A stretch of DNA of 64,000 nt from Eremomyces bilateralis CBS 781.70 (Eukaryota): NCBI GenBank assembly GCA_010015585.1, contig ML975156.1, one strand, 5' to 3'. The translations under genes and the position numbers were made by a program. The notes beneath the pieces were generated by a model. It searched no databases and had not been told where the DNA came from. It was given only the letters and a program-made list of their open reading frames with translations. Numbering within the stretch: the first letter of the stretch is position 1; every line of letters begins with the position of its first letter. Of the stretch, positions 29,954 to 40,500 are shown in pieces.

Positions 29954-31407
29954 CGTGGTGGACTGGTGAACTGGTGATACTAGCAGCACGTAGTATGCCG
30001 GCTCCTTGCTATTTGGACGGACAGGGGCATGGGCTGGATAGGGCTGATGAACGTATACGTAGTATGGATCGAGATATTGATAGGCGTCGAACCAGGGTTC
30101 CTTGATGGACGGCTGATTACATGATTACATCTGATGTCACTTTTGGATTTGTGGTGAAAAAGGGCTGAAACGTGAATGCTGACAGGCATTTGTAGACTGG
30201 AGCCCTGAAGCCATCCTCAATTTCCTCATTCATCAATCCCTGACCGATCCTCATCGCACATCTTGCCACCACTCACCAGCATTCAACCTGTCTTGTGGGT
30301 ACCGTAAGCACCAGTGGTTAAGCTTAAACGCTAAGGCTCATTGCGGGAGGCCTAGCCCGATTGAAACATCCGGTTTTACAGGGTTTCTAAGTATACTCCA
30401 ACAGAAAATGCAGCTCTTCGTGTCGAATTTCTCGACAATCTCCCGCCGTCGTCCGGTTGGGGGTTGCCGCCGCCTTAGGGGCCAAGGGGTAAGAAAGTTT
30501 GAATGGCCAACAGTCTGTGTGACTTGTGAGGCTATATACAGTGATAGTGTGATAGCCTTATCTCATTCACCGCTACACGTCGATCCCGCTTCCCTCTTCT
30601 GTTGCGGATCCTGTTAATCATGACCAACATTGATTTCTCACACGGTCCACAACACTTTGAAGGGCTCGAACTATGCTTGCTTTGAGTAATTCTCCTCGCA
30701 AGCTAAAGCACGAAGTCGCAATTCCTGAGGAACAAGCAATACTTGGACCAGGACCAGTATCGCGGATTCGTGACACGACAAATGGCGTCAGATGGCGCCC
30801 TTGGCAGTTGAGCATGCTAGCCCGAAGACAGTACTGATAACAAGGCCCCTAATCCAAAGGAGCCAACTGCCACCCAGCGAACAGGGAACAATCCAACCCG
30901 CTTACAGTCAAACCACAACGCCAAACGCCCCCAAATCCCAAACTCCAAGCCTTCCTGGTTAAAATGGATCCCGAAAAACAGTAAGCACTTGCGACGGATC
31001 TATTATTAATATGCCCGATTGGACTTTCGCTGCACCAGTGCTCCTTGGCCCAGTGCCCGCGAATCGGCGATCACTACACCGGACACTGCCTTTTCAGCCG
31101 CAGCAATGTTGCTTGAACCCTTGAATACAATTACAATGTCGCGTGTTTCTTAGCGTGGATTAATTTTAAGGGTTGAGGCTATGGTTGACATGACAGGGAC
31201 GGGGGACTCGGGATCGTCAGTCCATACAGTCAGCTCTTAAATCGCCCATAGCGACGCCATTTATTTCGTAAGGTGACTTTTTTTATATTTTTCTGATTCC
31301 CGATCTTGTGCTTATAATTCCTTCGTGTTTTGGAATTTGGAAGTTGTACTGTATCTTGTTCAGAAAGTAATGCCAGGTCCAGCCCAGTAGGCTGAGAGGT
31401 TATCGGT

Positions 31408-33297
31408 ATGCATCGATTTCCAGGTCATGAACGAGTTTTGAGAGCTAACACGGAATTTGCAGTTCAAATGGGCTCCCCAGCTCCTGCGGCATGGAGCCAT
31501 CAACCCTCTGGAATTCCCAATGATGGAGATATAGCCTACGAGCCGATGCGAGACCGGTCGGATACATACACGTCCGATGCACCTGGACGAGGTCGGTCTG
31601 ATACTTTCTCGGACGAGCCACCTCGATACTACGACCCAAGCGGAACACAGTCACCTCCCCTTGCAAACGACCATTCGAGGCATGTATCACAACCGACTCC
31701 ATTCCATGAGAATGATTTCCTGCTCTCGGATCGATCAGGTGCTCCGACCGTGGAGCACAAGGGACCACCTCCCCCGTTCTTTCGAAGAGGCGTCCTGTTC
31801 TTCACTGCGACACGGAAACGTGTCTTTACTCGTCTCCTTCCATTGATTCTTCTCCTGGTGGGTATCCTCGCCATCGCTATCGGGGTACCGATTGCCCTGT
31901 CGCAAAAAGGCGACTCCAATCCCTCCGATAACAATGACAACAATAACGACGACGGCACCCCGATTGCGGTTGCAGCCAACCTGCTCTCTACACCGGTCGG
32001 CTCTCCGGACGCCGATGATTACGACAATACCCCCCGCCTCATTTTCGCCCACTACATGCTCATCACACCGCCGCCGGACCACAACTATAACCCAGACATT
32101 GCAGCCGCACAAGCCGCGGGCATCGATGCTTTCGCCATCAACTACGGAGGCGTGAACATCAACCCAACTACCCTGCAAGCGGAGCTCCGGAACTTCTACG
32201 ACGCGTGCGCTGACCACGGCTTCTCCGCCTTCATCTCCATCGACGCCACCTCGACCACCGCGTCCGGCGACCAGATCAAGCCCGAGGAAGCCGCCGATCT
32301 GTTCAACATGTTCGCCGGCCACCCGGCCCAACTCAAGTACCGGGACGCCGCCCTGTTCAGCTCCTTCCAGACCACCGACACCCCTTGGAACTGGCGCGAC
32401 GACGTGCTCACCAACCTGAATACCTCCGTCCACCTCCTCCCCGGTACGCTCACCACCGACGGCGACGCCGCGTTCAATCGCTCCGAGGCGGACGGCGCGG
32501 CCGGGTATTTCAGCTGGATCCACCACTTCGAAGACCCGCACAGCGAAGCCAGTATCGACGCCTCCTTCGCGGCGATCCGGAACAGCACCGAGCACTCGCC
32601 CAGCGGGGGGACGAAGGACGGGAAGCTCAAGTGGATGGCGCCGCTCGCGCCGTGGTTCTACAAGAACCTCGGCGCGCACTGGGCGACGCACCAGGGCCCG
32701 CAGATGTTCCTGCCGCGCGCGTTGGACCTGCTGCGGCGGAAGCCGGACTATCTGCAGCTTGTGACGTGGAACGACTACGGCGAGTCGACGTATTTCGGGC
32801 CGGTGAACAGCAACCTGACGGCGCTGTGTTCCGGGTGCTATTACGGCCACCTGGACCACTCCGGGTTTCTCGAGATGTTGAAGCCCATCTTCCGCGCCTA
32901 CCGGAAAGGGGACGTCGACGTCACGTTCGACGCCGACGACAACGACAAGGAGAACGTGTGGATGTACTACCGCCCCCATCGCGCGGCCACGGGCACCGTC
33001 GGCACCCGGCCGGACGCCTGGGACATCCTCCAGGATAAGGTCTACATCGTGACGTTCGTCGCGGAGGATGACACGATGATCACGCTGACGGCCAAGGACG
33101 GGGCCGGGACGAAGGTCAAGGAACAGAAGATGAAGGTGATGAAGGGCCTCACGGTGGTCCAGGCGGACTGGGCGAAGGGCAACCAGACGATCATGGCGAC
33201 GCGTGGGGAGAAGACTGTCGTCAAGGCGAAGACGGGACCATCGATTATGGATGCGCCGGATAGGAATGGATATAACGGGAATGTGGTGGTCGTTTGA
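31408..33297 (+). CDS. Glycoside hydrolase family 71 (alpha-1,3-glucanase/mutanase) with N-terminal signal-anchor
   Basis: Motifs IFAHYM, DIAAAQAAGIDAFAINYG, WMAPLAPWFY, QLVTWNDYGESTYFG. Single hydrophobic helix at about 31834-31902; intronless. The true start may be Met at 31468. Confidence 0.88.
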   Translation: MHRFPGHERVLRANTEFAVQMGSPAPAAWSHQPSGIPNDGDIAYEPMRDRSDTYTSDAPGRGRSDTFSDEPPRYYDPSGTQSPPLANDHSRHVSQPTPFHENDFLLSDRSGAPTVEHKGPPPPFFRRGVLFFTATRKRVFTRLLPLILLLVGILAIAIGVPIALSQKGDSNPSDNNDNNNDDGTPIAVAANLLSTPVGSPDADDYDNTPRLIFAHYMLITPPPDHNYNPDIAAAQAAGIDAFAINYGGVNINPTTLQAELRNFYDACADHGFSAFISIDATSTTASGDQIKPEEAADLFNMFAGHPAQLKYRDAALFSSFQTTDTPWNWRDDVLTNLNTSVHLLPGTLTTDGDAAFNRSEADGAAGYFSWIHHFEDPHSEASIDASFAAIRNSTEHSPSGGTKDGKLKWMAPLAPWFYKNLGAHWATHQGPQMFLPRALDLLRRKPDYLQLVTWNDYGESTYFGPVNSNLTALCSGCYYGHLDHSGFLEMLKPIFRAYRKGDVDVTFDADDNDKENVWMYYRPHRAATGTVGTRPDAWDILQDKVYIVTFVAEDDTMITLTAKDGAGTKVKEQKMKVMKGLTVVQADWAKGNQTIMATRGEKTVVKAKTGPSIMDAPDRNGYNGNVVVV

Positions 33298-33764: not shown

Positions 33765-35823
33765 TCACCCCCGAAGTCTCTTCCTCTCTTTTCCAACGCC
33801 TTCATCAAGCTCACGCTTCATGGGCAGACTCGATGGCAGCTCCGGTTCATTGACTTGGCCATCCAATCCAGTCACTTTCCGCCTCATGTCCGGGGAAACG
33901 GATCCTCCGCGCTTCGTGCGACGCCATCTGTTGAATGGGCTTTGAGTGCGCGTCTTCTCGACCTGCAGTTTGTCGACGGCGTCGTTGATGGGAAACGCCT
34001 CGGCAGTGGTGGGCGTCTCCGCCGCGAGATGGGGAACGGTTGCGGGAGACTGCGGAATATCAGTGGCACGAGCGTCGATGTCCATCATATCATGGTCGGC
34101 TGGGACTGCAGGAGGATCCGAATCTTCGAAGATCGAAACGGGTTCTTTGGATTTCCTGCCACGACGACTCTTCCGCGTCGTCGGTACGGTTCGCTCATCA
34201 TCAGCCTCCGCGCCGGTCTCAGGCTCCAGGTCGACCGAGGGGGTCTTCTGAGCCGCTCGGCGGATCCGAGTAGATGCTCGAGTCGATGCCCGAGTGGATG
34301 CCCGAGCTTTCGGTTGAGCTTGAGGCCTGAAGGACGGAGACTGGTCGGGTTGGGTGAGGTTCGTCGAATGGGAGGAGGCAAAGGCAGACACGGAGAAGCT
34401 GACAGAAGCGGAACGCAGACTTTCGGTGTATTGGCGAACCGTTTCGTTGTCAACGTCCGTCAATGCCTCTTCGTCATTCTCGTCCACAGGCTCCACTGGA
34501 GTTGGCTCAACCGGGACACCTTCATCCTTCGTTTGGCCTCGTGCGGCCTTTGCGTTACTGGAAGAGGGTTCGTCATCGTTTGGGAAGAGTCGGCGTGCAA
34601 TGCGTTGGCTGGATCGAAGAAGTGGCCGGTCGGCGGCCGCTCCTGCGGAACGAGCGACGGTAGCACTCATGGGATATTCTTCCGCCAAAGCCTTGGCGTG
34701 GTTGTTGACGGTTTCCGGTGAAGAATCTGCGGCTCGAAGTCGAGAATCCTTCGAGACTCTTCCGGGGGTGGGCGAGGTCGGAGGTTGGCGGTCCGTGAAA
34801 GGTTTGAACGTCTTCTTCCCCCGGCTATGTAACAAGTCAGTGATGCGTCGCGAATTAAAGGATGGGGAGCGTGTGAATAACTTACAAGACGTAAATCAAT
34901 CCTTCGTTCCGTTGAACTGCTTCTTCCATTCGCTTCTCCTCTTCCACCTGATCCTTCGACTTCCTCTGGCTCCGGGTCTTGGGCGCTGGCTTCACTTCGA
35001 TCGCAGCAGACTCGTCCTTGGCGCGACTTATGAATGGGTTGTCCTCACTCCGGTCAAGCTCGGGTCGTCGCTCCTTGGGATCGGTGTAGACCTCGACGCC
35101 CTCGTTGTCTGCATCTGCCATATCAAGATCATCATTCCAACCGTCGAGCACAAACTTGCCTCGGCGACGGCGTGGTGGAGGCATTGCATCCTCTATTGTG
35201 GCAGTACGGCTTCCGAATAGCGGACGGGCCGCCGCCTGGATGGCTGAGCGGGGGACATCACGTTTGCGTGGAGTCCTGGCAGGCGTTGGGTAAACACCGG
35301 CTCCAGTGAAGGGTAGAAGTGAAGCTCCAGATTGATGACCACTAGGTTGCGGCATGCTGAAAACCTCTTTGTCTTCCTCCATTGTCTTGGCTGTCACACG
35401 TCGTGATTGTGTAGGCGACTTTGATTTGGAAGACTTGCTCGGCGAGGGGTGTGAATCAGAGTGGTGCGGTGAACCAGGAGGTGATAATTCAGAATATTCA
35501 GGTAGCTTGTGCTTTCGTTTGGAGGAGCGCACGGAAGTCGATGGAGTAGGTGTCGTTTGCCGCATATTGTTTCTTGCATATGATGAAAGTGAAAGTGAAG
35601 TGAAGTTGGAGCTTGTGTTAGGTGTGAGTTGGGAAAGTGATGTTGTCGGGGTAGAGGAATATTTGCTCTGTTGCGATGCAACTCGTGTGGATCGTCGTGG
35701 TGAATATGGCTCCCAGCGGTCATGTCGAGCGCCATGCAGAGGAGCCGGAGGGGTGTGGATGCGAGAGTGACGAGGAGGAGTATGAATTCGTGCTCGAGGC
35801 GGCGGTGTGCTGGGAGATGCCAT
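33765..35823 (-). CDS. Disordered S/T-P-rich protein, probable Rum1/Sic1-type CDK inhibitor
   Basis: Exons 35823-34886 and 34824-33765 (intron GTAAGT..CTGAC..TAG). Splicing creates EGLIYVFRGKK. Other motifs: PSTPP, PTPARTPRK, EDNPF, RRLF. The gene model is well supported; the function is inferred. Confidence 0.65.
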
Positions 35824-36268
35824 AGTGAACTGAACCAACAGGACCGCTCGTCTCTTCTTCTTGGGTTCTGAACAAGTGACACCAACAAATGTTTGGATGA
35901 GGCTAAGATATGCGCACTGTCAGGAAAGGGATAAGGGAAGCGCTATATTTTGGTCCTCTGATCCGGATGAAGGAGATATGGGAGACTCAAGTCGACTGAG
36001 GAAAGGGGTGTAAGAGGCTAGACAGCATAAAGGGTAGAGCAATGGAATAACCAGAATAAACGTGCTATATCCAAATAGAGCATGAACCATGAACTGAAGG
36101 TAAAACTGGGAAGCGAAGTGAAAGGACGAGATGCTATGTCAGATGCATCATGGCTTCACTTGAGGGATGAGGTGGCTGGGAGGGTTGGTCAATTCCGGTT
36201 GGAGGTCGGTGCTTGTGATGTTTACTGGCCATGTGTGGCTGGGCTGTGGCGCACCATGTCCATCCTGT

Positions 36269-36323
36269 CACGTGTAAACAAACAAAATAGTATCACGTGC
36301 AATCCCTCTGTCCATGTCACGTG
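36269..36323. promoter_or_regulatory. Three TCACGTG E-boxes and a forkhead site in a divergent promoter
   Basis: CACGTG at 36269, 36294 and 36318; GTAAACAAA at 36274-36282. Confidence 0.6.
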
Positions 36324-36557
36324 CATATGACTCTCCAGTACGTTCCTGCATCACGTCGGGATTTGTCCTTTGTGAAATTGTGAGTGCAATATCTCGGGTT
36401 GATCCACATATTGAGGTTCTTTATACGTATCCTCAGACTGCCCAAGCTCTTTAAACCTCAATTGGTCCATCTCGCTGGACAAGTTTGCAGATTGTAAAAG
36501 GATCCTTCCCATTCTTGGGTGGAGAGTTATACCTCAGCAACCGTTCAGCTCTCCACC

Positions 36558-37166
36558 ATGGATTCGGAACCGGACTCTCCCACCGACCATCTCTTCGACA
36601 GTCCTCCTCCCCACCCCCCCTCTTCCAAAACCTCGAAACCGTCCCCCGCAACCGATCCCAGTCCCACAAACCCTCAACCACGGTCCGCATCTACACGCTA
36701 CTCCGACGCCGAAGCGCGGGACGCCTCCCTCAAAACCGAGCTGCAGTCCCTCCGCCGTGTCAACGCCACCCTCGACGCGCTCATCGCCTCCTTACGCACC
36801 GCCAAAGGCAACATGTCGACCCTGTCCGGCACCCTCGCCTCCAGCACCACGTTGCTGGACTCGTATTCCCGCATCCTCAGCCTGACGGAGCACCATAACC
36901 GATTGATCCTGGATCCGCGATGGGACGGCGCGAGCGGGGACGTCGCAGAGATGGAGCGGGAGGAGGAGGCGAAGCTCGAGCGGGAGCGGGAGCGGTCGAG
37001 GATAGAGCAGCGGAGGAGGGAGGAGGAGGAACGGAGGAGGGAGGAGGCAGAGCAGAGAAGGTTAGTTGGGGCGAGTAGTAGAGGGAGGGGTGCAAGTGGA
37101 ATCGGGCGAGGTGGAATATCAAGCGGAATCGGGAGAGGGGTACGCGGAAGGGGGAGGGCGGCATAG
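36558..37166 (+). CDS. DUO1: DASH/Dam1 complex subunit Duo1
   Basis: ELQSLRRVNATLDALIASLRTAKGNM...LLDSYSRILSLTEHHNRLILDPRWDGA, followed by a charged coiled coil and an RG-rich tail. Confidence 0.88.
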   Translation: MDSEPDSPTDHLFDSPPPHPPSSKTSKPSPATDPSPTNPQPRSASTRYSDAEARDASLKTELQSLRRVNATLDALIASLRTAKGNMSTLSGTLASSTTLLDSYSRILSLTEHHNRLILDPRWDGASGDVAEMEREEEAKLERERERSRIEQRRREEEERRREEAEQRRLVGASSRGRGASGIGRGGISSGIGRGVRGRGRAA

Positions 37167-37584: not shown

Positions 37585-40500
37585 TTACATCCCTTGCGAT
37601 CCATCTCCTCCGCTCGGCGATCGGCCTAATCCCCCAATGCGACTATCGAATCCAAATGACCCCGTGCCAACATTCCTCTGCAGGCCAAGTCCCGCGCCCG
37701 GTGCCATGCCCGGCGCGAGGGGCGCTCCGAACGAGTGATTCGGTCCTGCTCCGAGTCCCGGTGCAGCTCCGAGTCCCGCTAAGGGGGAACCCACGCCGAG
37801 TCCAGGGAGCGGGCTCGTTGAATCCGGTTCCCACTTGACGAACGTCCGCTGATCCTCGCCGGGTCCGATCCAGGCGATGCTGGCCGCGTCGTCCTCGGTC
37901 CGGAGCTGGAACGTTCCGCCACCGTTGTTCGAATCGCCTTCGGTTTCAAAGATCTGCATAAGTTCCTTATGTGTGACCTGGCCAATCTCGGGAGGTTGTG
38001 AGCTTTGGACGGCGGCGTACACATCTCGGACTTCGTGGTAGCCATCAATCTTCTTGGCAGCCGCGGAACCAGGACTCTCGGCCACGCCCGGAGCCGTGGA
38101 TCGTCGGGGTGCTGCAGCGGACAGTGTTCGACACGCTTGGCAGGCAAGAAGGCGGATGGTGACAGGTCGAGAGCTACGATGGTGAGATGGGGCTGGCCAA
38201 GGGTTGCCGGGACTCGCTCCCCAAGCACTCGAGCCCGTCAATCCGGACATGAGCCCTGCAGAGCCGAAGGAATTGGCAAGCGGGGGCGTGCTCCAGACCG
38301 TCGATCCGGGGATTTGAGCCCCTGGTGGCGATGGCTCACGACCGAACATCGTTGGCATCTGGTACATGCCGGGTCGGCTGTCTTGACGGCCAATGGGAGG
38401 AATACTCGGACGCCGACCACTTGACGGGCCCGGATATGGATCATCTACATCATCGAGCAATGCAGAGCTACCGAGGTGCCGAGACAAATCATCAATCGGA
38501 TCAGTCGAAAGAGACTTATGTTCGTGCTCGTGCGGCTTCACACTGGACGGTCTCTGGATAGGAGCGGGTCGTGAAATTGGTTGCGCCAAAGACTGTGAAG
38601 CCCCTGGTGGACCATCATACGAACCCGACGGCTGGCGAGAATGAGGCTGAGGGATGTCCTTCCCTATGCCGGGGGGTCCGAATGCGTTGAAATTTACAGG
38701 CCCAGACATGGGAGGAAGTGGACTGGGAAATCCGGGCGGAGGCTCAAATGCACGAGAACCGGGCATCGGTGGCTGCATAGGATGGTGCAACCCCGGAGGT
38801 CCTTGGCCAGGCATCCCATAAGGAGGCATCGGGCGAAACTGAGGTCCCATCGGGAGTTGATGGGTGGTGAAAGGTGATACGTTCGGACCCCCGTGCGGGA
38901 TTGGGCTGATTCCCTGCCCTGGAGACAGTTGAGGTTGACCGGTAGGGCCAAACGTCGTAGGAATTCCAAACCCAGATGCTGCCTGAGATACAGGAAGACC
39001 CGGAGGGGAAGCCAGTGTTCGAGGTGGGGAAGAAGGGTGAGAACTCGAGAGCGGGACCTGTTGTTGACTGGGCCTTTGGAGAATAGACCTTGGTGTTGGA
39101 ACCGGATGAGATGCAGCTGCATTATTCGGAGATGCCGACTTCGACGTGGCTGACGAGATATTCGGTGTTTTAGGCGGAGTTACATGACTACCCGGCTGTG
39201 AGCCTTGCCTTGCTCGCAGACCAGGCGTAGGAACCTTCCCCATGACTGGAGTTGCGACCGGAACGGCGGGGGAAGCATAACCGGAGGGCTGTTTGTGAAG
39301 GCCCGGTGGTATTGCGACGGCAGGTTGAGTAGGTCTTTTGGATGCTTGGGCCTGCAGGTTAGCTTGCGATAGTTGCGATGCTTGGTTCGCGCCCTTCCGG
39401 TTGTGGACCGTCTGGGCTTGAGCCTGCGCCGCAGCCTCCAATCGTAAAGGGGCCTCCTTCGCTTGACGTTCGAACTCCGCTTGGTGCAAGGCATCCCGTT
39501 GTTTGCGTCCCTTCTCCTCCTGGAGCTTCCTCTCCCGGGCCTCCTTTTCACGGGCTTCACGCTCGTCGCGTTCCCTTTTCTTGGCATCGTCTTTGGCCTT
39601 TTTCTCCAGGGCCTTGGCTTCCGCTTGCTTTCGTTGTGCTTCCAGCTGCCGCTCTTTCTCCTCTTGTTGTCGCCGAAGCCGCTCCGCCTCTTTCTTTAGT
39701 CTCTCCTCCTCTTGGGCTTTCTTCTCCGCTTCCTTCTTCCTCTTCTGTTCTTCCCGCTTCTTTCGTTGCTCTTCGGCTTTCTGGGCTTCGGCGGCCTTGG
39801 CTGCGGCTTCTTCCGCTGCTTTCTCGGCCTCGCGTCGAGCCTTCTCTTCAGCCTTGGCCTGCTTCTGCTGGAGCTTCTTGTCTTTGCGCTTTTGGGCGTC
39901 GCGAGCTTTCTTGGCGTCCCGCTCCGCACCCATACGCTCCTCCTCCTGGATCTCCTCGAGGAGTTTCTGCTGTCGCTCCTGGGCCACTTTCTCGCGGTAC
40001 GCGGTGAGGACTCGCTGCTCAAACATCCGGGCGGCGAAGATCTGGAACATGCGGCGGCCTTCTTCCATACGCTGCTCTTCGGTCATGGCATCCTAATTCC
40101 CGGTCAGAACCCTCTTCGTTTCAATGGGGGCGTTCACAAACCATCTCCTCATCCTCCTCGTACTCCTCGTCTTCGCTGTACTCCTCTTCTTCTTCCTCGT
40201 CGTACTCTTCGTCGTCGGGAGGATAAGCGTGAGTATGGGCCCCATGAGAATGCATCATGTTCGCGGCAGCATGGATTGCCTCCTCTTCGCGTTGCATCCG
40301 TCGTTCGGCGAGCTGCTCCATCATTTCGATGAATTTCTTGCCATCGTTTTTCAGCAAATCGTCGGCAACGGTCAGTATGCCCCCTGCTGCAAATCGGATT
40401 AACTCTCCGCCCGACATTGTGTTGGGAGTCCACTATACCTTTCACGGTCAAGCTGTTCCCAAAGTTCAGGAAGTCGGCGGCGGGACCACGAGGTATCTCT

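Follow-up and report, generated by a model that had tools for sequence, protein, structure and literature searches.

The window analysed here is a 64,000-nucleotide stretch of contig ML975156.1 of Eremomyces bilateralis CBS 781.70. The gene under study lies on its minus strand and consists of two exons that together encode 665 residues, from the start methionine codon at 35823 to the end of the stop codon at 33765. The first reading frame runs from the ATG at 35823 to a stop just within the GTAAGT donor at 34885, and the second one ends at 33765. The coding part of exon 1 (34886..35823, minus strand; residues 1-313) comprises an S/T-P-rich, disordered N-terminus, a degron, a first RxLF motif and the YTD and NPF blocks; the coding part of exon 2 (33765..34824, minus strand) covers residues 313-665 and the stop codon. 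The GT-AG intron between them (34825..34885, minus strand; 61 nt) interrupts the codon for F in the YVFRG block and carries, besides the donor, a CTGAC branch site and a TAG acceptor. This intron had been proposed in a preliminary description made from the sequence alone and is borne out by a spliced contig from one public run (X1, which is guessed to be RNA), where 34824 is joined to 34886 with exactly 61 nt skipped, and by the spliced frame which remains open, with no internal stop, over all 665 codons. The probable 5' leader (35824..36117, minus strand), which reaches the end of the spliced contig, contains three upstream ATGs (36090, 36083 and 36028) that open frames of 56, 21 and 13 codons; translational control by these ATGs is possible. 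On the opposite side, the contig extends beyond 33000 and covers the 3' end of a glycosyl hydrolase 71 gene that runs towards it (31396-33297; Pfam E 5e-63); either the two genes overlap at their 3' ends, or the assembly has merged them. The 26.9 Mb genome of this fungus has a single copy of the gene under study.

Head-to-head with this gene, at a distance of 735 nt from ATG to ATG, is the gene for the DASH complex subunit DUO1 (36558..37166, plus strand, 3' end approximate; Pfam PF08651, E 5.6e-22). Beyond DUO1, there is a large gene for a coiled-coil, proline-rich protein (37585-40092, minus strand) with no Pfam match in the scanned part, which we presume to resemble Nst1; a relative of this gene is located near the respective family gene in two of the 79 related loci (L031 and L037), on the downstream side there.

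The search with exon 1 identified one protein of a lichen fungus (44% identity, E 5.5e-19) as the sole relative; when itself used as the query, this protein retrieved 399 proteins among 948 candidates. A profile of 35 members matched 1001 clusters at E<=0.001 (the best 150, which carried no names, were displayed); the names seen among members come from many filamentous ascomycete genera and are all of the hypothetical or uncharacterized kind. Against a family profile of 83 full-length members, hand-chosen from the search matches, the spliced product of the window gene reaches 260 bits (E 4e-72), compared with -27 for the best of 500 shuffles. The conserved blocks come in the order PTPAKTP, ARxLF, IfTD, NPF, GxxYVFRGK, RPlTRSxxKPRLLF, EEAxTD, SPFxxWxRtK and basic end, and their counts, given below for the 83 family rows, are partly circular because the members were recruited by the same motifs. 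Deviations of the window protein from the family consensus are a Y before the degron, ARRLF in place of KPRLLF and about 200 additional residues.

Matches to characterized domains were not detected. Neither exon product belongs to a Pfam family, none of 35 relatives has a match above the cut-off (one weak, unrelated match has E 0.052), and the Cip/Kip CDK-inhibitor domain is absent from the exon products and from these relatives. The PDB sequence search returned a nucleotidase tail alone (E 0.15-0.87, judged to be due to chance), and Foldseek with the disordered model returned nothing at E<=0.001; VIA-align with the same query reached a best Z of 2.7, and both fold searches were uninformative. 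A search for longer relatives found none, which is weak evidence. The intron position is conserved in 52 of the 79 metagenome loci; 18 loci lack the intron, and in nine the motif was not located. Most of the 18 (L033, L034, L042-L045, L047-L052, L054, L059, L065, L066, L081 and L085) have a similar wording, RDEG..YIFRG, which suggests that the intron disappeared in a single lineage or in a small number of lineages; some of the intronless loci may be transcripts. Among 253 database proteins, 62 terminate at the intron point, as reading through the intron would produce; such endings split the best-conserved block and may contribute to the lack of annotation for this family.

All the motifs listed in the preliminary description are located where it had placed them: YPTPARTPRKR at residue 178 (35292), AARPLF at 198, DRSEDNPF at 257 and IARRLF at 388, together with the EGLIY..KPF block at residue 307, which exists as a product of splicing only. 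The richness in S/T-P sites, for which more than ten had been claimed, is evident as well: there are 25 in the whole protein versus 14.8 expected by shuffling (25 or more in 0.4% of 2000 shuffled sequences) and 15 in residues 1-200 versus 8.4 expected (0.45% of the shuffles reach this count). The family median for sites preceding the degron is 10. In the structure model of a relative, the chain is disordered (pLDDT 55, pTM 0.23), and the ordered parts are a helix and beta-hairpin that cover the YVFRG block and a further helix downstream. Disorder and an abundance of S/T-P sites in the N-terminal part are what is expected of a Rum1/Sic1-type inhibitor.

The diphospho-degron PTPARTPRK (35263..35289; this and the following motifs are on the minus strand) is, by sequence comparison, the counterpart of Rum1 T58/T62; its T180 and T184 are each embedded in a full CDK consensus, and the pattern is found once in the 26.9 Mb genome. 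It is followed by the first RxLF motif, AARPLF (35215..35232), in which the R, L and F are present in 81, 81 and 77 of the 83 rows, respectively; since RxL is a type of cyclin docking motif, this is a putative cyclin docking site. Next are the YTD ... NPF blocks (35032..35091), with NPF in 83/83 rows, and the G-x-x-YVFRGK block spanning the intron (34797..34905), a putative Cdk1-binding element that, in the relative's model, forms a beta-hairpin right after the most confident helix. The second RxLF motif, IARRLF (34584..34601), corresponds to KPRLLF in the family consensus. Downstream are the acidic EEAxTD block (34455..34472), the SPFxxW tail block (33924..33941) and the bipartite NLS-like basic end (33771..33818; pattern in 69/83 rows), which is predicted to function in nuclear import. 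The C-terminal tail had been described as a long extra. Its unusual length stands, the protein having 665 aa versus a family median of 459 (range 415-547), but its blocks are not species-specific: EEAxTD is present in 66/83 rows, SPFxxW in 62/83 and the terminal basic block in 77/83. What is species-specific is a low-complexity expansion, including a short RAST repeat, in the tail at 33950-34450 (minus strand), and this expansion accounts for the approximately 200 residues by which the protein exceeds the family median. The likeness of the putative inhibitory region to Rum1 is tentative: the NPF, YVFRG and LF blocks of Rum1 presumably follow in the same order as in the window protein, and the start motif MEPSTPP of Rum1 would likewise fit.

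The degron provides the link to Rum1 that can be compared directly with a published sequence. The T58 degron of Rum1 is printed as PPTPAKTPK in Table 1 of PMC1802738, and the family columns L-P-T-P-A-K-T-P-R, which form the most conserved block of the family (T, P and P in 83/83 rows, the second T in 81/83), are identical to it in seven of nine positions. The Rum1 degron motif given in the preliminary description agrees with the printed one. The window sequence, Y-P-T-P-A-R-T-P-R, has six of nine identities and two K/R exchanges. According to the available text of PMC7195536, T58 and T62 are the main CDK sites of Rum1, and their phosphorylation leads to degradation via SCF-Pop1/Pop2. Degrons of the T-P-x-x-T-P form are common among the SCF substrates in Table 1 of PMC1802738, so the window protein could in principle be an unrelated disordered cell-cycle protein, such as a transcriptional repressor, an APC/C inhibitor or a kinetochore partner co-regulated with DUO1, that acquired its degron by convergence. 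One Atlas cluster, whose members have no Pfam family in common, carries the automatic name 'Shugoshin C-terminal domain-containing protein', which would also fit this possibility; we nonetheless consider it highly improbable. The AKTP half is absent from the other degrons in the same table, the 35 members have no Pfam family above the cut-off, and convergence would require two coincidences, namely the 7/9 degron match and a DUO1 neighbour in the S. pombe orientation.

The second of these observations, which the preliminary description had not noticed, holds across the family. Among the 50 of 79 related loci with at least 1.5 kb of upstream sequence, DUO1 is encoded head-to-head with the family gene in 48 (32 of 34 after removal of near-duplicates), and it is correctly oriented in 51 of the 51 loci where it was seen. 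The loci were selected by protein motifs rather than by their neighbours, and the many that come from related fungi cannot be counted as independent of one another. The S. pombe genes duo1 and rum1 are presumably divergent neighbours as well, going by the naming convention (no DNA was viewed), given that their identifiers are consecutive and the first one carries a 'c'. These identifiers are SPBC32F12.08c for duo1 in the available text of PMC2193660 and PMC4700965 and SPBC32F12.09 for rum1 in the supplement of PMC1157095. The family gene thus occupies the position of rum1, head-to-head with duo1, as far as the S. pombe orientation can be read from gene names. Because a chance degron match combined with a chance shared neighbour is jointly very unlikely, we conclude with high confidence, from the degron match and the DUO1 gene order, that this gene represents the ortholog of S. 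pombe rum1 in filamentous ascomycetes. The Rum1-type reading first proposed from motifs is therefore supported by a published degron sequence and by gene order.

The region shared by the two divergent genes contains two CCAGCCA sites (36173..36179 and 36236..36242, both on the minus strand). Within 750 nt upstream, CCAGCC is present in 32 of 33 promoters, the window included, versus 12.5 expected by first-order resampling, mostly 280-430 nt before the start and chiefly on one strand. The extended form CCAGCCA is found in 24 of 33 promoters versus 4.4 expected and in 17/84, 1/24 and 3/27 control tiles; this form was selected a posteriori, being the most frequent 7-mer, and the start positions of some genes are estimates based on match coordinates. 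The form CCAGCC(A/T)C, we assume, also fits a Crz1-type site. At the level of sequence, the conservation of CCAGCC shows an apparently conserved regulation, for which Ace2- and Crz1-type factors would both fit. MCB-like sites are weakly raised (22 versus 14.3 expected), with none in the window promoter, and GCCARG is not enriched (20 versus 19.4 expected). A second 7-mer, CAACCTC, is present in 20 of 33 promoters versus 3.3 expected (32 loci, L012-L084, and the window). The window promoter also has three CACGTG and two forkhead-like GTAAACA sites at 36219-36356; the relatives' promoters contain forkhead sites in five of 32 cases and CACGTG in four of 32, so that neither kind of site is conserved. 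In the available portion of PMC1157095, CCAGCC is given as the S. pombe Ace2 consensus, and rum1 itself is placed in the forkhead-type Cdc15 cluster, not in the Ace2 cluster; the supplement lists SIC1, an M/G1 gene bound by Ace2/Swi5, as the rum1 homolog (a low-similarity functional ortholog).

Judging by orthology with Rum1, the protein is probably a working Cdk1-cyclin B inhibitor, and the reading that we favour as a whole is, likewise with good probability, that of a rum1 ortholog encoding a disordered, nuclear, stoichiometric Cdk1-cyclin B inhibitor that lengthens or holds G1. The gene would be transcribed around mitotic exit via the CCAGCC site, and the product would enter the nucleus through its basic C-terminal end. 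The RxLF motifs are then predicted to dock on cyclin B, and the NPF and helix-hairpin blocks on Cdk1, so that the kinase would be blocked in G1. A G1 cyclin-Cdk1 complex of the PucA type might subsequently phosphorylate T180 and T184, perhaps aided by the many upstream S/T-P sites, and an SCF-Cdc4/Pop ligase would destroy the phosphorylated protein and release S phase, as published for Rum1. The expected partners are encoded in the same genome: three cyclin genes score highest, the first of which is cyclin B-like, and there is a single PSTAIRE kinase. A search of viral contigs yielded no relatives of the cyclins. A complex prediction that combined the cyclin B domains of this fungus, its Cdk1 in the form of two exon products and the relative's core, run without alignment or controls, gave a score of 0.00 with the verdict 'no answer' and speaks neither for nor against the reading.

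The published data on Aspergillus nidulans bear on this reading from both sides. In Table 1 of PMC3944740, cyclin B and PucA alone are listed for purified NimX(Cdk1), although an unstable inhibitor confined to G1 could be missed by such a purification. Furthermore, as described in the available text of PMC6078057, deletion of pucA becomes viable once cdhA alone is deleted; this rescue implies that passage through G1/S in A. nidulans is not absolutely barred by any inhibitor. Together with the conserved tail blocks outside the core, the NimX table and the rescue would fit a gene that shares its ancestor with rum1 without retaining stoichiometric G1 inhibition, so that its product would act as a Cdk1 substrate, a cyclin-docking adaptor or a weak modulator while G1 depended mainly on APC/C-CdhA. 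We regard this as improbable, considering that the degron, both RxLF motifs and the hairpin block are strongly kept across classes, as if degradation and Cdk-cyclin binding were under selection, and that the pucA cdhA double mutant retains an interphase delay (PMC6078057, same text). If the gene is a Rum1 ortholog acting as an inhibitor, it should explain this residual delay.

No Rum1/Sic1 ortholog in filamentous fungi was named in the literature searched; subscription journals and ortholog databases lay outside this search and may record such an assignment. Rum1 is absent from the main text of a survey of fungal cell-cycle evolution (PMC4862756), the available parts of PMC6593044 and PMC2895642 treat Rum1 or Sic1 in yeasts only, and those of PMC6078057 explain G1 control in filamentous fungi via PucA and APC/C-CdhA, with no mention of Sic1 or Rum1. 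Rum1 and Sic1 being well known, the gene described here is very probably an added member that goes by the label 'hypothetical' in moulds. It turns a gap in the cell-cycle control of filamentous fungi into a specific, testable single-copy gene that is readily located next to DUO1 in the majority of the related loci studied, and T180 and T184 are its predicted stabilising sites. The hundreds of family sequences may help to define the residues that are important in the inhibitory region of Rum1, and the rum1-duo1 pair would represent a deeply conserved gene order. More speculatively, and with considerable doubt on our part, filamentous ascomycetes might widely possess an unrecognised, longer form of Rum1, equipped with a pair of cyclin-docking motifs and with a conserved tail that has a nuclear signal of its own, as the G1 brake that keeps spores dormant and determines the timing of the nuclear cycle in multinucleate hyphae. 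Its gene would have stayed together with the kinetochore gene DUO1 on a single bidirectional promoter ever since the fission yeast lineage branched off, and the Ace2-/Crz1-type site would couple mitotic exit, or calcium stress, to the length of G1.

Among known inhibitors, the Cip/Kip proteins p21 and p27 are disordered chains that combine a motif of the RxLF type with a helix and, after it, a beta-hairpin. The window family resembles them in these features, by analogy only, but has neither a Cip/Kip Pfam match nor a PDB sequence match. Sic1 of S. cerevisiae, alongside which C. albicans Sol1 is placed as a related system, is similar to the window protein in being disordered and in having many N-terminal CDK sites. 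Unlike the family with its one strongly conserved diphospho-degron, Sic1 has several imperfect degrons, according to PMC1802738; Sic1 and p27 are themselves without sequence identity (PMC4862756). S. pombe Rum1 differs in size, being named p25 in cited titles, in contrast to the 665 aa of the window protein and the family median of 459. In the window protein, the degron is about 120 residues farther from the start, the tail of the family proteins has conserved blocks of its own and a bipartite basic terminus, and the promoters of the family conserve CCAGCC, not forkhead sites. Nevertheless, it is Rum1 that shares with this family both the T58/T62-type degron, identical to the consensus in seven of nine positions, and the duo1 neighbour in head-to-head orientation, the latter by the S. 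pombe naming convention.
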